NCBI GenBank assembly: GCA_031268855.1
Contig: JAIRWS010000040.1
Coordinates: forward strand, 1-39,052
Reading direction: 5' to 3'
Length of the DNA stretch: 39,052 nucleotides
From: Candidatus Margulisiibacteriota bacterium
GTDB taxonomy: Bacteria; Margulisbacteria; Termititenacia; Termititenacales; Termititenacaceae
Shown: piece after piece, positions 11,190 to 39,052 of the stretch
Layout of the letters: the number at the start of each line of letters is the position of its first letter
Numbering within the stretch: position 1 is the first letter of the stretch
Position numbers and translations under genes: made by a program
Notes under the pieces: model-generated
Database searches by the model: none
The model's input: only the letters and a program-made list of their open reading frames with translations
What the model was told of the DNA's origin: nothing

Positions 11190-12407
11190 ATGGCCAAAGT
11201 TAAAAGAAATATTTTAGCGGAACTCCTTAAAGAATTCGCTTTGCCGCAAATCTCGATCTTGTTGGGGCCGCGGCAGGTCGGCAAAACCTTCCTGCTAAAA
11301 GAACTGCATCGGGAAGCCCAAAAACGCCAGCTGCGCTGCAGCTATTACAATCTCGAACTGCCGTCCGATAATTTAAAATTCAACCAAGATGAGGCCGGTG
11401 TGTACAAAATGCTGACCACCAATACCGCTGTGCTTTTTATTGACGAATTTCATTATTACCCGAATATTTCCAAACTATTCAAAGCCATTTACGACAGCAA
11501 TAAAAAAATAAAAATTTTTGCGTCCGGCTCGTCATCAATAGAAATACATAAACACCTCAAAGAAAGTCTGGCTGGCCGGCGGCTGGTCACTAAAATAAAT
11601 CCGCTGACCCTGACTGAATACGCGCAAAAAAACAAAACCCGAAATCCCGCTAAAACGCTTGACGAATATCTGGTCTATGGCGGGCTGCCCGGATTGGTGC
11701 ACGCCGATAACAAAGAGCACAAAATACGGCTGTTAAACGAACTGCTGGAAACTTATATCCAAAAAGACATCAAATCCCTGCTCAAGGAAGAAAATATCCG
11801 CGCTTTTAATAATTTGCTGTATTTGCTGGCCGAACGACAGGGCTCGCTGATCTCCGTCAATAACCTGGCCAATGAAATCGGCCTGACCAGCCGCACTATC
11901 GAAAAATATCTAACGCTTCTGGAAAACACTTATACTTGTTTCCCGCTCGGCTCATATTCCAAAAATATCGGCAACGAATTAAAAAAATCCCGCAAGTTTT
12001 TTTTGTACGATTTCGGCATTCGGAATACTATACTGAAAGATTTTTCCGCCAGCCGCAGCAGAAAAGATTTTGGCGCTATTAACGAGTCTTTTGTCTTTTT
12101 GAATTTGCTCTGGCAATTGCAGCCTAATATGGAGCTGCGTTTTTGGCGGGACAAATCCGGCAACGAGGTGGATTTTGTCCTGCTCGTTGACCGCCAGCCA
12201 ATACCAATAGAAGTAAAAACAACCTGGTCGGACGCCGGCATCCCGCAAGGTCTTAAAGCCTTTCTCAAACGTTACCCCGCCACAACCCAAGCGTTTGTCC
12301 TATCAACGAATTATATTGGCGTGGCTAAATATAAGAATACCAAAATCATTTTTATGAAAACCGTGGCTTGCCTGAATTTGCAAAACTTCACCAAGGAGCA
12401 TTTTTGA
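11190..12407 (+). CDS. AAA+ ATPase with C-terminal DUF4143 (PD-(D/E)xK-like) domain
   Basis: 405 aa. Walker A GPRQVGKT, Walker B LFIDEF. C-terminal EVDFVLL...IPIEVKT, typical of AAA_14 + DUF4143 proteins. Confidence 0.8.
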   Translation: MAKVKRNILAELLKEFALPQISILLGPRQVGKTFLLKELHREAQKRQLRCSYYNLELPSDNLKFNQDEAGVYKMLTTNTAVLFIDEFHYYPNISKLFKAIYDSNKKIKIFASGSSSIEIHKHLKESLAGRRLVTKINPLTLTEYAQKNKTRNPAKTLDEYLVYGGLPGLVHADNKEHKIRLLNELLETYIQKDIKSLLKEENIRAFNNLLYLLAERQGSLISVNNLANEIGLTSRTIEKYLTLLENTYTCFPLGSYSKNIGNELKKSRKFFLYDFGIRNTILKDFSASRSRKDFGAINESFVFLNLLWQLQPNMELRFWRDKSGNEVDFVLLVDRQPIPIEVKTTWSDAGIPQGLKAFLKRYPATTQAFVLSTNYIGVAKYKNTKIIFMKTVACLNLQNFTKEHF

Positions 12408-18004: not shown

Positions 18005-18328
18005 CTAAAGCCGTTTTAGTATTTTTTCCGCAGTGCGATCCAGCTGACGCTGGATATCGTCTTTTAAAATTTTATATAGAGCGCCCTTGTTGATGTTTTT
18101 TTTCAGCGGCTTTTTGGTATTGCGAAAAAGCAAGTCTGGAGTGAGCTGTAAAGCCTGCGCCATTTTTTCGATCATTTCCACCGAGGGAAATCTTTTGCCC
18201 AGCTCTATCTCGCTGATGTAGTTGGTGGCTGTGTTGCAGATGTCAGCCAGCTTGGTCTGGGTCAAGCCGGATCCCTTGCGGGCATTGCGTAAATTGCGGA
18301 TAAATATTTCACGTAAAGTCATTAGCAA
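18005..18328 (-). CDS. XRE-family helix-turn-helix transcriptional regulator (module 1)
   Basis: HTH_3-like GLTQTKLADICNTATNYISEIELGKRFPSVEMIEKMAQAL. The track start is TTG at 18328; the ATG at 18322 is the more likely start. Divergent from the tail-fibre-like gene. Confidence 0.8.
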   Translation of the reverse strand: MLMTLREIFIRNLRNARKGSGLTQTKLADICNTATNYISEIELGKRFPSVEMIEKMAQALQLTPDLLFRNTKKPLKKNINKGALYKILKDDIQRQLDRTAEKILKRL

Positions 18329-18350
18329 ATGCTAATGTCTGAGGCCATGC

Positions 18351-18411
18351 TTGACAAATGTCTAACTGATAGTATACTAAATATGTCTTTTAGATAGAGT
18401 CATCTAAAAGC
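18351..18411 (+). promoter_or_regulatory. Promoter (TTGACA-16 nt-TATACT) plus a 10-bp inverted repeat at the start of the 5' UTR of the module-1 fibre-like gene
   Basis: -35 at 18351..18356 and -10 at 18373..18378. The -10 lies within the palindrome AGTATACT, so a -10-like hexamer also exists on the minus strand. Inverted repeat gtcttttagat-agagtc-atctaaaagc at 18386..18411. Confidence 0.5.
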
Positions 18412-18447
18412 TGATTATTGTTACCGCAAGAAAAGGGGGTATTTTTT

Positions 18448-19452
18448 ATGGTAAACGCAAGCAATTACACGGACACGACAGACACGGATTTCAAAGCGGG
18501 GAGTTATAATATCGATACGGGCAAACCTCTTTCGTCCACAGGCGTGAGAGCGGCTTTGCACACCAAAGAAAAAATCGCCAACAAGCAGGTCTCTTCAGCG
18601 GACGCCACGGCGGATACTTTGACCGCTAATTCCAGTGATAGCTATTATCCAACAGCCAAGCTGGCCGGGAAAAATCTCGACGCGCTGAGGAACGGCAAGC
18701 AGGATAAGCTCGCCGCCGGCATAGCCAAAAATATCGTGGCTTATTCCGGGACGGCGGGAACACCTGGCACGCTAACCAGAACCACGACTATAGACACCGC
18801 GGCGAACGCCAGCGACGACAGGATACCCACGGAAAAAGCGGTGGCTACCGCTTTGTCTGGAAACGAAAACACGAGCAATAAAGCTACGTCAATTACTGCT
18901 GCCAACAAAAACGATGTGGTCAAGTATCCAACGATCGGGGCGGTGACAGCCTGGGCGACCACTACGTTAATGGATTTACTTTTGCCTATAGGGACGATAA
19001 TAGCTATGGAAACTATGGCTTATTACAACAACGCCGACGCTACATTCAAAAGCAAATGGAAAGTCTGCGACGGCAGCAGCAGCAACGCGCCGAATCTGAA
19101 ACATAGATTCTTGCGCGGTTTCGAGTCCGGCGACAGTACGACCGGCGGCGCGAACAGCGTGGAGGTGGATGTACCCTTAAAAAAGCATAGCCATACCTTT
19201 ACTGGCGCAACGGCAAGTGGTTCTCTTAATCTATATCACTATGGCGACGGCTTAGACAGAACAATTTTTACCAATAGCGGGGATAGTAGTACTTCACTGC
19301 CCAATAATAATGGAGAAACTACCGGAGAAGGAATTAATTTTTCCCTTACCCCTTCCGGCACGATCAGCAGTGAAGGCGCGGATAGTTCAACCATTACCGT
19401 AAGTACGTTGCCAAGTTATTACACTGTAATTTATATTATGAAAATAGCTTGA
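18448..19452 (+). CDS. Orphan phage tail-fibre-like protein with C-terminal tail-collar (MdpB-like) domain
   Basis: The ATG at 18448 has AAGGGGG 8 nt upstream; the track start at 18418 is an upstream TTG. The N-terminal half has 3-4 degenerate fibre-type repeats (YYPTAKLAGKNL, RIPTEKAVATAL, KYPTIGAVTAW). Collar-like core: IGTIIAM...WKVCDGSS...NLKHRFLRG...GGANSVEV...KKHSHTF. C-terminal strand LPSYYTVIYIMKIA. No signal peptide is evident. Confidence 0.7.
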   Translation: MVNASNYTDTTDTDFKAGSYNIDTGKPLSSTGVRAALHTKEKIANKQVSSADATADTLTANSSDSYYPTAKLAGKNLDALRNGKQDKLAAGIAKNIVAYSGTAGTPGTLTRTTTIDTAANASDDRIPTEKAVATALSGNENTSNKATSITAANKNDVVKYPTIGAVTAWATTTLMDLLLPIGTIIAMETMAYYNNADATFKSKWKVCDGSSSNAPNLKHRFLRGFESGDSTTGGANSVEVDVPLKKHSHTFTGATASGSLNLYHYGDGLDRTIFTNSGDSSTSLPNNNGETTGEGINFSLTPSGTISSEGADSSTITVSTLPSYYTVIYIMKIA

Positions 19453-24054: not shown

Positions 24055-25340
24055 GTCAGCAGTTTCGCTTTCAGAATATAGCCTTCCGCGCCAACGATCT
24101 TAGCGTCAGCAAACTGACCTGGAACACAGCGGGACGTGAGATTCACACCGCCGTCAATATCCGGCGCTTCGCACTGTGTGCGGCCAAAAAAAGGCATATC
24201 CATTAAAATTTTCACTTGCTTACCCAGCATCTTTTTATTCTTCCTATCTGTTACTCTGCTTTGCGCATCCGTTAATTCGGCCACGCGGTTTTCTTTCACC
24301 GTCCGCGGCAGCTGTCCTGTCAGAGCCGCCGCTTTCGTGCCTTTTTCCCGGCTATAGGCCAGAACGCCTACTTTACTAAACTCATACTCCTCAACAAAAT
24401 TTTTTAATCTGGCAAAATCGGCCTCGTCTTCCCCCGGATACCCGACAATAAAATTAGTGCGAATGGCAATGTCAGGAATAAACTCCCGGAGCAGCTTGAT
24501 CTTTTGTTTGATCAATTTCTCCGAACTATCCCGCCCCATGCGCGTCAAAATTTTGTCCGCGATATGCTGCAGAGGCATATCGAGATAATGGCAGACCTTG
24601 CTGCTTTCCGCCATTACCTGTAATATTTCCGGCGTAACCCGTTCGGGATACGCGTACATGACCCGTATCCATTCCAGCCCCGCGATTTTCTCCAGAGACC
24701 GCAACAAATCCGCCAGACGATATTCGCCGCAAAGATCTATACCATAAGAGGTAGTATCCTGCGCCACCAGAGAAATTTCGCGCACTCCTCTGGCAACTAA
24801 ACATTCAGCTTCTTTGATAATATCATTTTTTTGCTTCGAGCGGTAGCCCCCTCGCAGGCGCGGTATCGTGCAAAAAGCGCAGGCATTGTCGCAGCCGTCA
24901 GCGATCTTGAGATAGGCGCTGTGCGGCAAAGTCGCGGGGAAGCGGAACTCCTGTCTGGTCAAAATTTTCGGCAGGGACGCCAAAAACTGGCCGTCTTTCT
25001 CGACAGCCTCAACGATATTTTGCGCCGAACCGACGCTGACTATAGCGTCGATCTCTGGATATTTTTTGAGCAGTTTGGCTTTTTCGCGCTGCACCAGACA
25101 GCCAGCCGCAATGATTTTGCCAAAGTAGCCCTGTTTTTTGAGCGCGATCAATTTCTCTATCTCCGCCTGGGCTTCCCGCACGGCGGAATCAATGAACGCG
25201 CAGGTATTGATGAGGGCAATATCCGCTGGCGGCTCGCCGGTCACGATACGGTACCCGCGCGCCCGCAATGCGCCCAGCATCTCCTCGGTATCGGTGAGAT
25301 TTTTCGGACAGCCAAGACTGATGGGGAAGACGGAGGGCAT
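24051..25340 (-). CDS. rimO: Ribosomal protein S12 methylthiotransferase RimO (radical SAM MTTase)
   Basis: 429 aa. N-terminal ISLGCPKNLTDTE, radical-SAM cluster CDNACAFCTIP, C-terminal TRAM-like region. Confidence 0.85.
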   Translation of the reverse strand: MPSVFPISLGCPKNLTDTEEMLGALRARGYRIVTGEPPADIALINTCAFIDSAVREAQAEIEKLIALKKQGYFGKIIAAGCLVQREKAKLLKKYPEIDAIVSVGSAQNIVEAVEKDGQFLASLPKILTRQEFRFPATLPHSAYLKIADGCDNACAFCTIPRLRGGYRSKQKNDIIKEAECLVARGVREISLVAQDTTSYGIDLCGEYRLADLLRSLEKIAGLEWIRVMYAYPERVTPEILQVMAESSKVCHYLDMPLQHIADKILTRMGRDSSEKLIKQKIKLLREFIPDIAIRTNFIVGYPGEDEADFARLKNFVEEYEFSKVGVLAYSREKGTKAAALTGQLPRTVKENRVAELTDAQSRVTDRKNKKMLGKQVKILMDMPFFGRTQCEAPDIDGGVNLTSRCVPGQFADAKIVGAEGYILKAKLLT

Positions 25341-25729
25341 TACAGTAATTCTTTTTTTATGCTTCTTTCTAGCTCTCTGGCAAACTCCAAAAAATCACCA
25401 GCCTGTTGAACGGACGGTATACCATCAGGCAATATTCCAAGTTCGCCGGGGTAGCGTTCTTCAATATAGGTTTTATTTATGAGAGCTAGTAAATCTTCAT
25501 TAATTTTCAAATCTTTTATCTCTTTAATCATGCCATACAACAAAATCAAATCATGAGTTTTGATTATCGGTTTATCTTTCTCCAGTAAATAGGCCTTAAA
25601 GTATTTTTCTATTGCCTGCTGACAATGAAACGCTACAATATTTGTCAGGGACTGGCCTTTGTTTGTTTCTATGGCAGCTGCTATGTCTTTTTCCGCGTAT
25701 AGAATCCAGGCTTCAACAAACTTTTTCAT
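25340..25729 (-). CDS. HEPN-domain protein (toxin partner of MNT), copy 1
   Basis: Likely start is MKKFVEAW at 25729; the track ORF extends to 25753. HEPN-like FHCQQAIEKYFKAYL...KTHDL...EERYPG. Overlaps the upstream NTase gene by 17 nt. Its TAA stop shares one nt with the rimO ATG (TAATG). Confidence 0.75.
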   Translation of the reverse strand: MKKFVEAWILYAEKDIAAAIETNKGQSLTNIVAFHCQQAIEKYFKAYLLEKDKPIIKTHDLILLYGMIKEIKDLKINEDLLALINKTYIEERYPGELGILPDGIPSVQQAGDFLEFARELERSIKKELL

Positions 25730-26054
25730 ACAACACCTTTCCCGTGTTTTCAATTTCTTTAAGAAAAAAACTGCCGTTATTTTTTAGCACAGCCAATTCT
25801 CCTCTGGAATAAACTAAAAGGTCTAAAGCTTTTTCATAATTTATTTTTCGCACCAATTTATGCACTGCCAAAAATCTTTGCGCTCTTTCTCCATAAGTCC
25901 GCGCGACATTATTATCATCAAGCACGACCATTAAATCCACATCGCTGTCCGGCCCGGGATTGCCTCTGGCATAGGAGCCAAATAAGACGATCTTGTAGGG
26001 ATCAGAGGCTTTGAGCTGGCGCACTAGATCATTGATAATAGTCTGGGTTTTCAT
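25713..26054 (-). CDS. Minimal nucleotidyltransferase (MNT antitoxin-type), copy 1
   Basis: 113 aa. Pol-beta-type NTase motif LFGSYARGNPGPDSDVDLMVVL. Confidence 0.8.
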   Translation of the reverse strand: MKTQTIINDLVRQLKASDPYKIVLFGSYARGNPGPDSDVDLMVVLDDNNVARTYGERAQRFLAVHKLVRKINYEKALDLLVYSRGELAVLKNNGSFFLKEIENTGKVLYEKVC

Positions 26055-28275: not shown

Positions 28276-28542
28276 GTGCGCGAAGTGAGTTTTACTAATT
28301 TTTCTCAGAATTTACAAAAGTATCTGGGAAATACAGAGGCGGATAATGTGACTATCGCCAAAAATGGAGTGCCCGTATTGAGGATTGTTATGGATGACGC
28401 ATACCATAAAAACAAATTAGTCAAACCAGAAAATAATCAGGTTTCCATATCTCAGCAATTACTTGGCGTAGCGGCAGGCATCAACATGTCTTTAGAGGAA
28501 TTAAAAGCTGAGCGCCTAGCTAAATATGAACATACTGCTTGA
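28276..28542 (+). CDS. Phd/YefM-like antitoxin (partner of the PIN toxin)
   Basis: Start taken at GTG 28276, which has GAGGTG 5 nt upstream; a TATAAT at 28252..28257 lies inside the longer track ORF. N-terminal VSFTNFSQNLQKYL...VTIAKNGVPVLRIV resembles Phd/YefM. Overlaps the PIN gene by 17 nt. Confidence 0.6.
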   Translation: MREVSFTNFSQNLQKYLGNTEADNVTIAKNGVPVLRIVMDDAYHKNKLVKPENNQVSISQQLLGVAAGINMSLEELKAERLAKYEHTA

Positions 28543-28939
28543 TACAAACATTATTCTGGATGTACTGCTAAAACGTTCTCCGTTTTATATTGAGGCTCTA
28601 AAGATTTTTGAACTGGCGGAAACTGGCAAAATAAATGGTTTTATTTCCGCAACAACATTTACCGATATTTATTACCTCGTGCGTAAGGCGGTTGGCAATA
28701 AAAACGTACAAAAAATTTTACACCAGCTTACAACCATTTTTACAATTTTAGCAGTGGCCGAGCCGGAAATTTTGAACGCTCTTAATTTGCAATGGAAAGA
28801 TTTTGAAGATGCGGTGCAATATGCAACTGCGCTGGGCGCTCAAATGGACGGCATTGTCAGCCGCAATAAACAGGATTATCAGAACAGCAAAATTCCGTTG
28901 TACGAACCAGCGGAATTTTTACAAAAAACTATAGAATAA
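28526..28939 (+). CDS. vapC: PIN-domain ribonuclease toxin (VapC family)
   Basis: 137 aa. N-terminal ILLDTNIILDVLL with the first PIN acidic residue. Later acidic positions occur in ...TDIYY... and ...FEDAVQ.... Confidence 0.8.
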   Translation: MNILLDTNIILDVLLKRSPFYIEALKIFELAETGKINGFISATTFTDIYYLVRKAVGNKNVQKILHQLTTIFTILAVAEPEILNALNLQWKDFEDAVQYATALGAQMDGIVSRNKQDYQNSKIPLYEPAEFLQKTIE

Positions 28940-32604: not shown

Positions 32605-33006
32605 TTATTTATTCAAGTTCTCCTCCCGTACTGCAACTATTGGAGTAAAATTTTTGACTCGTTCGGCATATTTGACCGCATGCTCAACATTTTTCTCCGT
32701 AATATCCATTTCATAGGGATAACGCGGCTGTACGCCAAATTGCGTCAAAAAACCGCAAATACCAGCCAATTCGTCGAAAGATTTATCTTTTTCTGAGCAC
32801 AAAGCGCAAAGCTCATCTAACTCATGGGTTTTAGGCGGGCGAACATTTCTAGCTATTAAATAACCTTTCAAATATTTTTCTGCGGCTTGTTCGCAATGAT
32901 AACAAATAATTTCATAATGCCTGGGACGCATCTTGCGCAACAATTGAGCCGTGTCTAAATCGGCATCGGCAAAAGACCACCATTCAGAGCTGTTTTCAGC
33001 TGCCAT
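32605..33006 (-). CDS. HEPN-domain protein (toxin partner of MNT), copy 2
   Basis: Start taken at MAAENSSEWW (33006). HCEQAAEKYLKGYL...KTHELDEL...QPRYPY. Overlaps the upstream NTase gene by 11 nt. Confidence 0.75.
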   Translation of the reverse strand: MAAENSSEWWSFADADLDTAQLLRKMRPRHYEIICYHCEQAAEKYLKGYLIARNVRPPKTHELDELCALCSEKDKSFDELAGICGFLTQFGVQPRYPYEMDITEKNVEHAVKYAERVKNFTPIVAVREENLNK

Positions 33007-33319
33007 AAATTTTAATTCCCTCTGTGGCAATAATATTTTCCAAAGATAGTTCGGCTTTACGCCGCTCAAAAACACTTTTTCTGCCGATCAACAAATCCAA
33101 CGGGATCGTTTTTTTCTTATAAAGCGTGGCGCGGATTTTTGCGCCAAGTTCAACGGTGTCTGTTTCCGCATCGGGAACAACCACATAAATATCCAAATCG
33201 CTGTCATCTCTCGGCTGACCGCCGGCATAAGACCCAAAAAGATATATCGCCTCCGCCGGTGTGCTGGCTATTACCGAGTTTGTAATCAGATCAATCTCTT
33301 TTTTTACAGCATCTAACAT
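32996..33319 (-). CDS. Minimal nucleotidyltransferase (MNT antitoxin-type), copy 2
   Basis: 107 aa. LFGSYAGGQPRDDSDLDIYVVV. Confidence 0.8.
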   Translation of the reverse strand: MLDAVKKEIDLITNSVIASTPAEAIYLFGSYAGGQPRDDSDLDIYVVVPDAETDTVELGAKIRATLYKKKTIPLDLLIGRKSVFERRKAELSLENIIATEGIKIYGS

Positions 33320-35431: not shown

Positions 35432-35761
35432 CTATTCGACCAGCATTTCGTTGAGGATATTTTTCACTTCTAATATTTTGTTAGAATTTAAGCGTCCGAG
35501 TTTGCGCACAATTCGGCGCTTGTCCACAGTGCGGATTTGCTCTAAAACAATCCAGCCGTTCTTACCGCGAAAAGTTAGCGGCACCCGCGTCGGAAACGCG
35601 CGGGCTTTGGTCGTTAGCGGCGCAATAATCACCGTGGCGATATTACGGTTCATTTCGTCCGGAGAAACAATCACACAAGGACGCGTTTTTTTTATTTCAT
35701 GCCCGACAGTAGGATCAAGATTGACCAGACAAATTGTGTATTGTTCCATCACCAAACCCAT
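35432..35761 (-). CDS. mazF: MazF/PemK-family endoribonuclease toxin
   Basis: VNLDPTVGHEIKKTRPCVIVSPD...IAPLTT. An alternative ATG at 35749 shares one nt with the mazE stop (TGATG). Confidence 0.85.
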   Translation of the reverse strand: MGLVMEQYTICLVNLDPTVGHEIKKTRPCVIVSPDEMNRNIATVIIAPLTTKARAFPTRVPLTFRGKNGWIVLEQIRTVDKRRIVRKLGRLNSNKILEVKNILNEMLVE

Positions 35762-35997
35762 TCAAAAGACCGGTCATCAATATAGTCGGGCAGTAACAAG
35801 GCGGCGGTTTTGGTTTCAGCCGCTTGGGCAAAAGCCTTCTCCCAGCCCTGCCGCGGTTTTTTTTCCACGCCTTTGATCACCAGCTCGTCAGCGTGGATTT
35901 CCATTTCCACTTCGTCCTCGATACTTAACTCACGTAAAATATTTTTTGGCAGACGGATGCCACGGGAATTGCCAATTTGCACCACCGGAATAAGCAT
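35749..35997 (-). CDS. mazE: AbrB/MazE/SpoVT-family antitoxin
   Basis: 82 aa. SpoVT/AbrB swapped-hairpin signature VQIGNSRGIRLPKNIL. AAGGAG 7 nt upstream of the ATG. Confidence 0.85.
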   Translation of the reverse strand: MLIPVVQIGNSRGIRLPKNILRELSIEDEVEMEIHADELVIKGVEKKPRQGWEKAFAQAAETKTAALLLPDYIDDRSFEWVW

Positions 35998-36018
35998 AAT
36001 TTGGCTCCTTTTTATGTA

Positions 36019-36047
36019 ATTATAATGTAATTACATAAAGCTGTCAA
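36019..36047 (-). promoter_or_regulatory. mazEF promoter (TTGACA-17 nt-TATAAT) with a perfect 12-bp palindrome in the spacer
   Basis: On the minus strand, -35 at 36047..36042 and -10 at 36024..36019. The palindrome ATGTAATTACAT at 36025..36036 fills the spacer. A half-copy ATGTAATTA lies at 36014..36022. Confidence 0.6.
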
Positions 36048-36052
36048 ATTAG

Positions 36053-36451
36053 TTATAGCCGCGCCTTGATTTTTTCCGTTTTTCTCACCAGAGATTTGGC
36101 CGTGTCCAGCAGCACTTCCTGAAAACGCACATCCAGGCGACGCAGCAGCAAGACAATTTGTCCTTCCAGATTCTTGCTTTGCAGGCGCAACATCTGGCGT
36201 TGCGCCATTGGCGGCACCATTTCAACCCCGTCAAACCACCAGTCCAGCGTCACACCGTATTTCCGGCTGAAGCGCAGCAATGTGAGTAAATGCGGCAGAT
36301 TTTTACCGCACAACATTCGATAATACTCGCTGGGATCCATATCTAAACTGTCCGCTGTAGCCTCAATAGTTTGACCGCTCTTTTTGCGCAACAAAGCCAA
36401 TTTACGGCTTAACAACCGCTTTAAACGCTCATTGGTAATATCGTCTATCAT
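36053..36451 (-). CDS. Helix-turn-helix transcriptional regulator (module 2)
   Basis: Start taken at MIDDITNERL (ATG 36451), which has GGGAG 6 nt upstream; the track start is a GTG at 36490. HTH-like SGQTIEATADSLDMDPSEYYRMLCGKNLPHLLTLLRFSRKYGV. Divergent from the second fibre-like gene. Confidence 0.7.
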   Translation of the reverse strand: MIDDITNERLKRLLSRKLALLRKKSGQTIEATADSLDMDPSEYYRMLCGKNLPHLLTLLRFSRKYGVTLDWWFDGVEMVPPMAQRQMLRLQSKNLEGQIVLLLRRLDVRFQEVLLDTAKSLVRKTEKIKARL

Positions 36452-36493
36452 TCTTGTCTCCCTGAGTTTGTAAAGTCTAATTTTTAGCACCCC

Positions 36494-36534
36494 TTGACTT
36501 TAGGCTAGATATGCATATAATAGATTTATGCATA
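36494..36534 (+). promoter_or_regulatory. Promoter (TTGACT-16 nt-TATAAT) with two copies of the palindrome TATGCATA
   Basis: -35 at 36494..36499 and -10 at 36516..36521. TATGCATA occurs at 36510..36517 (overlapping the -10) and at 36527..36534, 17 bp centre to centre. GGGAGG lies 8 nt before the ATG at 36567. Confidence 0.55.
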
Positions 36535-36566
36535 ACTATCAATAAACAAAATGGGAGGAATTTATT

Positions 36567-37349
36567 ATGACCATAGCCACAGGCCAACCAATGCTGGCAA
36601 GCGACATTCTCAATCTGACTTTTTTTCCGAAAGGCACGATACTGACTTTCAGTTCTGAAGCGTGGAACAACGCAACCTACCCGGGATTTAAAGATATTTG
36701 GAAAGTCTGCAACAAAACAAATCACGTCGCTAATCCAAACATACCGGATCTGACCGATAAATTTCTGCGCGGTGCGGAGAGCTCAGATTTTACCACCGCG
36801 CGCGGCGCGGACAGCCAGAACATAACCCTGACCAGCACGCATCTCCCTTCACACACTCATGGAACGACAAGCTTATCTTTAAGCGGACTGTCCACGAGTG
36901 GTCTCATAATAGGTTCAGACGGGGTGCACACACATACACTCAGCGGCGGCACGTCGGAAAGTGGCTCACATAAGCATGACCTCTCTGACGGCAAAGCGGC
37001 CTCGGATGGCGCACATACGCATACGTATGAAAAATCTTTCAAAGTTGCTCCATCTGATACAGATAATTATGGCGGCATGAGTAATCTTAAGTACGAAACA
37101 ACAGACACTTCTACAAGTGGAAGTCATACACATTCTGTATCAGGCACTATATCCACCATCGGAACACACACGCACGATTTTTCATCGACTTCAAGCGCGG
37201 CGGCAGCCGGCACGCATAATCATACGATCAGTGGCAGTATTACCGGCAGCATCGCTGGCTCGATAGATAGTACTGGCGACGGCCAAGCGTTCAGCGTCAA
37301 CACCGTCCCGTCTTATTACACTGTCATTTACATAATGAAAACAGCTTAA
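36567..37349 (+). CDS. Orphan tail-collar-domain protein with a seven-fold HxH repeat array
   Basis: 260 aa. Collar-like GTILTF...WKVCNK...IPDLTDKFLRG...QNITLTSTHLPSHTHG. Seven HxH motifs in Gly/Ser/Thr-rich spacers. C-terminal VPSYYTVIYIMKTA is nearly identical to that of the 18448..19452 product. Confidence 0.7.
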   Translation: MTIATGQPMLASDILNLTFFPKGTILTFSSEAWNNATYPGFKDIWKVCNKTNHVANPNIPDLTDKFLRGAESSDFTTARGADSQNITLTSTHLPSHTHGTTSLSLSGLSTSGLIIGSDGVHTHTLSGGTSESGSHKHDLSDGKAASDGAHTHTYEKSFKVAPSDTDNYGGMSNLKYETTDTSTSGSHTHSVSGTISTIGTHTHDFSSTSSAAAAGTHNHTISGSITGSIAGSIDSTGDGQAFSVNTVPSYYTVIYIMKTA

Positions 37350-38455
37350 ATCAAAACCCGCTGTGTCACCGCGTCGAAGATATGCATTTTTTTGAGATTG
37401 AGATACAGGTCTAGATCCTGATTTTCGCGGCACTCGATGTGCGAATCCACACGCGCGGTGATTTGCTGGGTTCCGGCATGCACATAGACATAATTTTCCA
37501 TACCGAGTTTTTCGCTGAAATCCACCTTGACCGGCACCGGCTGTTCTTTTTCCAGATGCAACCACGGCAGCGCGGTTTTGTCATAAATGTCTGTCGGGCG
37601 AATACCCAGCGTCAGGTCTTTGTCCAGCAGCCGGTCGTACTCAGCGGTCAAATCCTTGGGCAGCTGCAGTTTAAAATTTTCCGCCTCAAACTCATAAACG
37701 CGGCCGGATTTGAGAATACGGCCTTTGATGAAATTCATCGACGGCGAACCGATAAATCCGCCAACAAAAATATTGGTCGGCTGATCGTAAACAGTGATCG
37801 CTGGCGCGCATTGCTGAATAATGCCGCCGTCCATCACGGCAATGCGGTCGCCGAGCGTCATGGCTTCCACCTGGTCGTGCGTCACATACACTATCGTCGC
37901 GCTAAGGCGGTTATGCAGTTTTTTAATCTCGCCGCGGGTCTGCACGCGCAGTTTAGCGTCAAGGTTGGACAGCGGCTCGTCCATCAAAAACACTTTGGGG
38001 TGGCGGACGATCGCGCGTCCCAGAGCCACGCGCTGCCTCTGGCCGCCGGAAAGCTGTTTGGGCTTGCGGTCGAGATATTCACCCAAACCCAAAATTTCCG
38101 AAGCTTCGTCAACCCTCTCCTTGATAAGATTCGGCGGGATCCTGCGCAGTTTCAGGCCAAAAGACATATTCTCCCGGACACTCATGTGCGGATAGAGCGC
38201 ATAGTTTTGGAAGACCATAGCGATATCGCGGTCTTTGGGCGGCACATCATTGACCACTTTGCCGTCGATCAAAACCTCGCCAGCTGTAATTTCTTCAAGA
38301 CCGGCGATCATGCGCAGCGAGGTCGTTTTGCCGCAGCCAGACGGCCCGACCAGCACTAAAAACTCGCCGTCTTTGATCGTGAGGTCGATGTTTTTTACGA
38401 TAAGATTTTTGCCATCGTAGGACTTGACCAAATCTTTAAGCTGCACACTTGCCAT
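37346..38455 (-). CDS. Carbohydrate-type ABC transporter ATP-binding protein (MalK/UgpC/MsmX-like), with no adjacent permease genes
   Basis: 369 aa. Walker A GPSGCGKTT, signature LSGGQRQRV, Walker B FLMDEPLSNLD, C-terminal regulatory (TOBE-like) domain. Confidence 0.88.
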   Translation of the reverse strand: MASVQLKDLVKSYDGKNLIVKNIDLTIKDGEFLVLVGPSGCGKTTSLRMIAGLEEITAGEVLIDGKVVNDVPPKDRDIAMVFQNYALYPHMSVRENMSFGLKLRRIPPNLIKERVDEASEILGLGEYLDRKPKQLSGGQRQRVALGRAIVRHPKVFLMDEPLSNLDAKLRVQTRGEIKKLHNRLSATIVYVTHDQVEAMTLGDRIAVMDGGIIQQCAPAITVYDQPTNIFVGGFIGSPSMNFIKGRILKSGRVYEFEAENFKLQLPKDLTAEYDRLLDKDLTLGIRPTDIYDKTALPWLHLEKEQPVPVKVDFSEKLGMENYVYVHAGTQQITARVDSHIECRENQDLDLYLNLKKMHIFDAVTQRVLI

Positions 38456-38465
38456 CAGCGATTCC

Positions 38466-38930
38466 TTATTTTAATTGCTTCAACAAATCGGCCATCTCGA
38501 TCGCCGTCAGCGCCGCTTCAAAACCTTTGTTGCCGGATTTCACGCCGGCACGCGCCAGCGCCTGCTCGGTCGTCGCCGTGGTCAGCACGCCGTTCACCAC
38601 CGGCACGCCAGTCTCCAAAGAGGCCAGGGTGAGTCCCTTGGCGGACTCCGCGGCCACGATATCAAAATGCGCCGTCTCACCCTGGATCACCGCGCCCAGC
38701 GCGATCACCGCGTTGTATTTGCCGGAAGCGGCCAGCTGTTTGGCCACGACTGACAATTCCAAAGCGCCGGGCACCCAGGCCACCACGCCGTTTTTCTCAG
38801 CAAAACCGTGACGGCCCAAGCAGTCCAGCGCGCCATCCAGCAATTTTTGAGAGATCAATTCGTTGAAACGGCTGACCACCAAAGCGATCTTCAGCTCCGC
38901 CGCTTCGTACTTGCCGGTAATTTCTTGCAT
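38466..38930 (-). CDS. ribH: 6,7-dimethyl-8-ribityllumazine synthase
   Basis: Start taken at [10 protein letters not shown] (38930), which has GGAG 9 nt upstream; the track ORF is an upstream extension. [12 protein letters not shown] and GVLT motifs. Confidence 0.9.
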
Positions 38931-38972
38931 AGGATACGCTCCAATCTTTAAGGACTTAGAATCAGGATTTAG

Positions 38973-39001
38973 ATTATAGGCAATTACGCGGGTTTTGACA
39001 A
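38973..39001 (-). promoter_or_regulatory. ribH promoter candidate (TTGTCA-17 nt-TATAAT)
   Basis: On the minus strand, -35 at 39001..38996 and -10 at 38978..38973, about 40 nt upstream of the ribH ATG. Confidence 0.5.
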
Positions 39002-39052
39002 ATCGAATTTTCTGAAACCTCTGCAAAAATCTAAAAGCGAGCCGTATCCGCT

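Follow-up and report, generated by a model that had tools for sequence, protein, structure and literature searches.

What is a gene resembling the tip of a phage tail fibre doing on a bacterial chromosome, among housekeeping genes and face to face with a gene for a repressor-like protein? The question is raised by a 39,052-nucleotide stretch of DNA from Candidatus Margulisiibacteriota bacterium (family Termititenacaceae in GTDB; GenBank assembly GCA_031268855.1, contig JAIRWS010000040.1, positions 1 to 39,052 of the forward strand), called the window below. At positions 36,053 to 37,349 it carries two facing genes 115 bp apart: an Xre-type helix-turn-helix (HTH) gene on the minus strand and a fibre-tip-like gene on the plus strand. 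We call this pair module 2; a similarly arranged pair, module 1, lies at 18005..19452. We propose, with a probability of roughly 0.6, that the fibre genes of this family encode a repertoire of receptor-binding proteins, each under its own control and with a swappable tip, which recognise the surfaces of partner cells. Termititenax is reportedly attached to ectosymbiotic spirochaetes.

Relationship of the 260-aa protein to phage fibre tips

The fibre-tip-like gene of module 2 (36567..37349, plus strand) encodes 260 aa. Its ribosome-binding site GGGAGG (36553..36558) lies 8 nt ahead of the ATG at 36567, a pattern seen across the family. The product is related to phage fibres by three kinds of search. 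Among PHROG profiles it matches the tail fibre family 2097 (E-value 1.1e-16), and the module 1 product matches PHROG 1800, 'tail collar fiber protein' (6.3e-8). A profile built from 38 family members and compared with PDB sequences finds the tail fibre of Pseudomonas phage Pa223 (9NXK, 9.7e-6) and the receptor-binding tip of T4 gp37 (2XGF, 1.1e-3), with both halves of 2XGF aligned; the alignments to the two entries begin at the collar motif and extend across the HxH repeats. A weak match to the fibre tip of the Bizionia prophage C24 (6OV6, 0.14) includes its PYYTLAYII C-terminus. Finally, Foldseek relates the AlphaFold models to a 'Phage tail collar domain containing protein' in BFVD (E-value 2.4e-6, probability 0.97), with several viral MdpB/collar proteins among the further matches; the models being extended monomers, TM-scores reach only about 0.2. 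The better-predicted parts of the models are the N-terminal 60 residues and the last strands, and the collar-like N-terminal domain reaches a model confidence (pLDDT) of 70-93. Pfam returns only YmaF for the 260-aa protein, below threshold, NCBIfam and PADLOC yield nothing for either fibre protein of the window, and a look-up found no exact record of the window protein.

Four parts can be told apart along the chain, all given here in plus-strand coordinates. Residues 1-100 (36567..36866) form a conserved collar-like domain with the motifs FFPKGTIL, WKVC, PDLTDKFLRG and LPSHTH (block identity 0.57-0.85). Seven HxH motifs are arrayed over residues 96-219 (36852..37223); they begin at residues 96, 121, 135, 150, 187, 201 and 217, four of them preceding residues 152-186 and three following. 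That central segment (37020..37124) is hypervariable, its identity to family members being 0.14-0.22. Conservation returns in the C-terminal strand AFSVNTVPSYYTVIYIMKTA (residues 241-260, 37287..37346; identity 0.65-0.72), where strands are predicted at 242-245 and 253-258.

Over the whole family, conservation is V-shaped, high at residues 1-100 and 231-260 with a minimum of 0.14-0.22 at 151-180. The same division marks the Pfam Collar family, whose last strand is split from the N-terminal part by a non-conserved insert: here, too, two conserved ends are parted by a variable centre. Likewise present is a trait of gp37-type tips, a short head segment flanked on either side by repeated HxH motifs. 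The T4 gp37 tip (2XGF), Pa223 9NXK and C24 6OV6 resemble the protein throughout, in the succession of collar, HxH repeats, short variable head, HxH and C-terminal return, and the collar motif PD-L/M-x-G-x-F/I-x-G is common to the family and phage fibre tips. Even the number of HxH motifs is that of T4 gp37, where such motifs coordinate seven iron ions (PMC11705849).

At the level of sequence, homology of the 260-aa protein to phage receptor-binding fibre tips is established. By analogy with T4 gp37 it is presumably trimeric, and like its homologues it would form trimers that bind metal. We predict that the HxH array folds into a trimeric needle stapled by metal ions, whose outgoing stretch holds four of the motifs and whose returning stretch holds three, that the apex is the receptor-binding head, and that the C-terminal strand goes back to the collar. 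So built, from a collar-like domain, an out-and-back needle with seven HxH metal sites, a hypervariable apex and a returning strand, the protein would amount to the tip of a phage long tail fibre in miniature, standing alone. Unlike T4 gp37, it is free-standing, with about 18 residues before the collar and no shaft; its gene is on the chromosome, occurs in tens of copies and is paired with a repressor gene of its own. Its gene lies outside a phage genome, and no gp38/gp57-like chaperone gene adjoins it. Nor does the family look like part of a gp37-type virion: its flanks are housekeeping genes, and it has no relatives in IMG/VR or INPHARED.

A lineage-specific family of fibre genes

A search of 5.8 billion proteins yielded 174 homologues; the named ones all come from Candidatus Margulisbacteria or Ca. 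Termititenax, with several per metagenome-assembled genome (MAG). Scanning 185,579 species genomes gave at least 78 loci, again all from Margulisiibacteriota or Termititenax, and a hidden Markov model run over the open reading frames (ORFs) of those loci found at least 103 members of the fibre family. Four genomes hold at least 27, 22, 21 and 16 copies, respectively, all of these counts being lower bounds; the window contains two members only. With an exhaustive profile search we obtained 12,485 representatives at E <= 1e-3 and 96 at E <= 1e-30, so the superfamily is large and the Termititenax clade within it small.

Several homologues bear the JGI name 'microcystin-dependent protein'. MdpB proteins (PF07484/COG4675; RhiB of Rhizobium, MrpB of Microcystis) are indeed similar: chromosomal, small and devoid of a signal peptide, they possess the collar motif, a variable insert and a conserved last strand. 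In the Termititenax clade this plan is joined by the long HxH needle and the Xre partner, and the clade has undergone a very large lineage-specific expansion in which tips are exchanged. We know of no function for the MdpB/RhiB/MrpB group, and a literature search on tail-collar/MdpB proteins gave nothing of use. Chromosomal phage-fibre-like or tail-collar proteins are thus a known kind; what makes the present ones notable is the scale of the expansion, the layout of one repressor per copy and the exchangeable tips.

The fibre copies are mostly single and placed between housekeeping genes, and no phage or secretion genes were found to recur in the flanks of the cassettes. These surroundings bear on one explanation of an Xre/cI-like repressor beside a tail-fibre homologue, namely that the cassette, an insertion as described below, is what is left of a decaying prophage and has no function. 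Against such decay stand more than 100 intact ORFs with conserved collars, consensus promoters and strong ribosome-binding sites, the isolation of the copies from other phage genes, the retention of positional orthologues in three genomes and the lack of relatives in phage collections. A prophage remnant fits this picture poorly, and we give it hardly any credence.

Many contigs end at or just before a fibre gene (L160, L161, L051, L053, L073, L075, L040 and L024). Such ends are expected if short-read assemblies fall apart at the roughly 90% identical ends of paralogous genes; the copy numbers are therefore probably too low. Whatever its function, the family accounts for assembly breaks at these genes.

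Pairing of fibre genes with Xre regulators

The regulator gene of module 2 (36053..36451, minus strand) encodes an Xre-family protein of 132 aa from ATG 36451, within an ORF spanning 36053..36490; a ribosome-binding site, GGGAG, lies 8 nt ahead of the start. An earlier note on this DNA, made from the sequence alone, had placed an HTH gene of this length and orientation opposite the plus-strand gene, and the coordinates hold. The HTH comprises residues ~14-72 and scores above the Pfam cut-offs for both HTH_31 (7.6e-7, 29.8 bits against a cut-off of 27) and HTH_3 (3.7e-6, 27.3 bits against 23). It is followed by a C-terminal extension of ~60 aa that probably serves dimerisation. When the regulators of the family are clustered, this one falls into cluster 1, whose members are paired with 32 fibre genes.

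The pairing is a general property of the family. Upstream DNA of at least 450 bp is available for 86 members. Of these, 77 face a divergent ORF (up to 200 aa, starting within 260 bp), and 72 of the 77 partners match HTH_3. The figure of 77 is itself a lower bound, because the gene calls do contain at least one partner that had been scored as missing. Members lacking a divergent partner mostly stand in tandem arrays. One such array (L064:4089-7669, MAG Pcl387_bin129) consists of six short fibre genes of 181-204 aa, head to tail, with a single Xre gene; L016 and L040 each have three copies within 7 kb.

Nearly all of the 77 spacers contain a TTGACA-like -35 element, a TATAAT-like -10 element and an AAGGGGG ribosome-binding site. 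Each has, over and just after the -10, repeats or palindromes of its own, such as ATAACGTATACGTTAT twice in L041 or GTCTTATAGCC..GGCTATAAGAC in L039. The longest repeat exceeds those of shuffled sequences at p <= 0.05 in 19 of 73 spacers (about 3.7 expected) and at p <= 0.01 in 10 of 73. From this arrangement we infer that each Xre protein represses locally, at its own operator.

Besides the Xre genes, the sole recurrent neighbour of the cassettes is an AAA_14/DUF4143 ATPase gene. It is multi-copy and lies a few kb from several of them (L015, L023, L033, L046, L057, L066); the copy in the window (11190..12407, plus strand) belongs to the PADLOC candidate defence family PDC-S01 (2.2e-89).

Promoter and candidate operator of module 2

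The divergent control region of module 2 spans 115 bp (36452..36566). It harbours a sigma-70-type promoter for the fibre gene (36494..36521, plus strand), in which TTGACT (36494-36499) and TATAAT (36516-36521) are separated by 16 nt and agree with the consensus at 11 of 12 positions. The 8-bp palindrome TATGCATA occurs at 36510-36517, overlapping the -10, and at 36527-36534, just downstream. Promoter and both palindromes had been pointed out before, and all are present where they were said to be. The palindrome has no other copies in the 39-kb window, and an 8-bp palindrome appears twice in this 115-bp spacer in 99 of 20,000 dinucleotide shuffles. Its two copies are part of a larger candidate operator dyad (36506..36538), with 92% complementary arms TAGATATGCATA (36506-36517) and TATGCATAACTA (36527-36538), each of which contains TATGCATA.

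This placement is suggestive of an operator. The module 2 regulator would bind the dyad, which covers the -10 and the transcript start, and so keep the fibre promoter repressed; it would probably repress its own promoter as well.

Relation of the two modules and exchange of tips

Module 1 consists of an Xre regulator gene (18005..18328, minus strand) and a long-type fibre gene ending at 19452 (plus strand). The regulator probably starts at ATG 18322 and not at the TTG chosen by the ORF finder, and the fibre gene at ATG 18448, which opens the family-typical leader AAGGGGGTATTTTTTATG, and not at TTG 18418. The promoter (TTGACA at 18351-18356, 16 nt, TATACT) is flanked by a direct repeat, ATGTCT-N-GATAG, at 18359-18373 and 18383-18397.

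The earlier note took module 2 for a paralogue of module 1. For the fibre genes this is correct. The motifs WKVC and FLRG, the LPxHxH context and the C-terminal PSYYTVIYIMK are, as claimed, common to the module 2 protein and the 18418..19452 product, and the similarity does reach beyond the last 14 residues: BLASTP aligns the two with 37% identity over 89 aa (E 1e-11) and 59% over the last 32 aa. The reported expansion of the HxH array is also real, with seven motifs in module 2 and a single one in module 1, whose fibre has an N-terminal shaft.

As a unit, the modules are not paralogous. One could imagine that regulator and fibre gene were duplicated together, given the identical architecture, the homologous fibres and the Xre type of both regulators. 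The regulators, however, share only a generic HTH likeness and belong to different clusters and Xre subgroups. At the nucleotide level, at which the note had also suggested aligning the modules, likeness is limited to the last 35 nt of the fibre genes (89% identity). Their operators differ as well, TATGCATA in one and ATGTCT-N-GATAG in the other, and across 74 cassettes the similarity of the fibres shows no correlation with that of the regulators (Mantel rho 0.006). Joint duplication is accordingly an improbable origin, which we reject; we regard modules 1 and 2 as two members of one cassette type.

How, then, do fibres and regulators part ways? Two other genomes (L047 and L057) hold positional orthologues of the module 1 locus, with flanking YhaM-like and YmdB-like proteins 84-90% identical. 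Their regulators are 89-91% identical and their operators almost identical, whereas the fibres retain only 39-50% identity: fibres diverge far faster than their regulators and the genes around them. Paralogues within one genome show a complementary pattern: their DNA is ~90% identical in the 5' 400-500 nt and again in the 3' 170-280 nt, and the middle cannot be aligned. The module 2 tip itself recurs at 79-82% identity in two homologues, P0002 and P0033, the latter being 79% identical in the tip and 44% in the collar. Conversely, P0003 and P0004 are 73-84% identical to the module 2 protein in the arms and 16-34% in the tip. Given these mosaic identities, the tip behaves as an exchangeable cassette. 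Sequence comparison thus establishes that fibre bodies, and above all their tips, are reshuffled between loci, with the regulators remaining in place.

A proposed repertoire of receptor-binding proteins

We now propose how such a repertoire could operate. Each fibre gene would be held repressed by its own Xre partner; once made, the fibre proteins, which have no signal peptide, would have to get outside by another route or on a carrier structure, and the set of tips would let the epibiont recognise spirochaetes.

The nearest functional analogy, of a different architecture, is the mosaic adhesive trimer (MAT) family of Bdellovibrio bacteriovorus, a bacterium that attaches to bacteria. It has about 20 chromosomal phage-fibre-like MATs, which are conserved in the proximal part and have diversified at the tips, where parts have apparently been swapped (PMC10769870). 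MATs are ~1000 aa long and have a signal peptide, a conserved N-terminal domain of ~130 aa and, in many cases, an S74 chaperone-protease (PMC10769870). By that description, the 260-aa family is set apart by the lack of a signal peptide, of the ~130-aa N-terminal domain, of a long shaft and of S74, and the passages of PMC10769870 considered here describe no pairing of MATs with individual Xre regulators. A relationship in sequence between the two families was not seen, no test having been aimed at it.

Several results weigh against a surface repertoire. In no complete family member does the N-terminus resemble a signal peptide (no hydrophobic N-terminal run exceeds 5 residues), and none of the members has an obvious anchor, so surface exposure is left unexplained. 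Attachment biology enters our argument through the title of Utami et al. 2019, as cited in PMC7608387, and as general background. Structural support is uneven: the AlphaFold models of the monomers are weak, with mean pLDDT values of 60.6 and 66.9, Foldseek comparison of the models with the PDB gives nothing significant, and Pfam's Collar model (PF07484) matches neither fibre protein at E <= 0.1. The label 'collar domain' in the earlier note therefore stands as remote homology, through PHROG, the 9NXK/2XGF profile matches and BFVD, and fails by Pfam's own Collar model. Tblastn against 50,697 phage genomes (INPHARED) found no relatives, and a motif scan of IMG/VR no match. As to control, TATGCATA was not found in the cassettes with the most similar regulators, which bear other repeats (for instance GCTGATTGAC twice in L028); because the motif is missing there, its assignment as operator is provisional. 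A generic longest-repeat test on the module 2 spacer was not significant (p about 0.4).

The lack of a signal peptide, usual for phage structural proteins, leads directly to the main rival. In it, the fibres would serve as interchangeable receptor-binding proteins of a particle resembling a phage tail, such as a tailocin, an extracellular contractile injection system or a gene-transfer agent, whose genes lie elsewhere in the genome. Assembly of the fibres would take place in the cytoplasm, they would leave the cell with the particle, and the many repressed copies would set its target range. Profile and fold searches place phage tail fibres closest to the family, the ~18 N-terminal residues are conserved (0.63-0.85 identity) and could be a docking peptide, and long-type members bear phage-like shaft repeats. 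Yet no sheath, tube or baseplate gene recurs in the ~600 kb of flanks around 100 copies, and the N-terminus of short-type members before the collar is only ~18 residues long; to our knowledge, known baseplate-binding domains are far longer. We judge a particle of this kind unlikely.

Returning to a surface repertoire of receptor-binding proteins, its boldest form is a library of at least 20 trimers, each under an orthogonal Xre repressor-operator pair, with recombining tips and a non-Sec route to the surface, by which the epibiont would choose or switch the surfaces it binds. We put this forward as a tentative extension, well short of probable. If true, the library would be the bacterial equivalent of the way in which phages diversify their host range.

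A repertoire as such, if confirmed, would provide a molecular candidate for the way in which an uncultured bacterium recognises its spirochaete hosts. It would also mean that the phage fibre-tip design has been shrunk to a stand-alone unit of 260 aa and domesticated in tens of copies, and it would assign a testable role to the poorly understood 'tail collar / MdpB' proteins of bacteria. Practical uses might follow: small repressor-operator pairs, available by the dozen in nature, would be of interest to synthetic biology, and compact trimeric binders with exchangeable tips would be useful for the engineering of receptor-binding proteins.

Insertion between malK and the TPR gene

Module 2 sits tightly between its neighbours. 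The end of the fibre ORF (37349) overlaps the convergent malK-like ORF (37346..38455, minus strand) by 4 nt. On the other side, the stop codon of the regulator gene is 6 bp from the promoter of mazE (36047..36019, minus strand), a TTGACA-17-TATAAT element that agrees with the consensus at 12 of 12 positions. The module was thus rightly described as wedged between a mazEF promoter and a convergent ABC ATPase gene. The mazE (35749..35997) and mazF (35432..35761) genes, both on the minus strand, match MazE_antitoxin (1.3e-6) and PemK_toxin (7.8e-32) in Pfam.

It had further been suggested that the module is an insertion, to be recognised by comparing the interval from mazE to the ABC ATPase gene in relatives. 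Synteny was established from MalK homologues and their contigs; a metagenome scan with MalK gave matches of at most 56% identity, which were of no use for synteny. In four relatives (L165, L166, L167, L168), ribH, malK and a gene for a 680-aa TPR protein are contiguous. The malK-TPR spacer measures 164 bp in Kf353_bin111, 189 bp in an ENA contig, 20 bp in Ca. T. persephonae and 80 bp in a JGI contig whose MalK is 96% identical. The corresponding interval of the window is 1916 bp long and contains the fibre gene, the regulator, mazE and mazF. Because malK directly adjoins the TPR gene in all four relatives, the cassette and mazEF are an insertion, as suggested.

The relative with the 96%-identical MalK (L167) has kept the start of the ancestral spacer, TTTCTGTTATAATCT, together with ~50 nt of the 3' end of mazF. 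This remnant points to at least two events: mazEF came first and was later lost in L167. A fibre cassette at the malK-TPR spacer is seen in the window only, and the closest fibre homologues (72% and 64% identical) lie in unrelated contexts. Flanking direct or inverted repeats that would mark the borders of a mobile element were looked for at module 2 and not found, and the base composition of the insertion is not distinctive.

An insertion slot in common with mazEF invites yet another explanation, that the pair is a selfish or defensive cassette akin to toxin-antitoxin or abortive infection systems, in which the Xre protein restrains a harmful or phage-sensing fibre-like protein. Equivalent slots of relatives contain Gp49/HI1420 toxin-antitoxin pairs, more toxin-antitoxin-like genes (HEPN/MNT, PIN) lie in the window, AAA_14/DUF4143 (PDC-S01) genes recur near several cassettes, and the module 1 regulator is similar to regulators of the controller and CapH types. 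Neither fibre protein, however, matches any PADLOC model, and the homologue is a structural fibre, with no toxin, enzymatic or pore-forming domain. The two genes are divergent, unlike the co-transcribed pairs of type II toxin-antitoxin systems, and a hypervariable apex suits ligand recognition better than toxicity. This explanation, too, fits poorly, and we consider it very unlikely.

Other features of the window and its relatives

The -10 element of the mazE promoter is overlapped by a perfect inverted repeat of 12 nt, TTTATGTAATTA (36011-36022) and TAATTACATAAA (36028-36039), likely the operator for mazEF autoregulation. The stop codon of mazF is 2 bp from the start codon of the TPR gene, which also adjoins a HEPN (32605..33075) and nucleotidyltransferase (32996..33319) pair. 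Other small toxin-antitoxin-like genes are scattered among the housekeeping genes of the window, namely a nucleotidyltransferase (25713..26054, in the region 25340..26054) and a PIN_3 gene (28526..28939).

Rfam detects no flavin mononucleotide (FMN) riboswitch and no other RNA family in the whole window. The ribH (lumazine synthase) ORF (38466..39026) is listed with 186 aa from a TTG, about 32 residues more than its orthologues of 154-158 aa, and the true start is probably internal.

In one of the four relatives (L166), a 267-aa gene beside an Xre gene was considered as a possible fibre cassette and ruled out: it encodes a Cys-rich protein near radical SAM genes. The region (L166:2724-6443) comprises a divergent Xre gene, the 267-aa protein with C-x-C-N repeats and then two radical SAM genes, and looks like a peptide-modification cluster. 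It occupies the slot between clpB and ribH, which in L165 holds a Gp49/HI1420 toxin-antitoxin pair.

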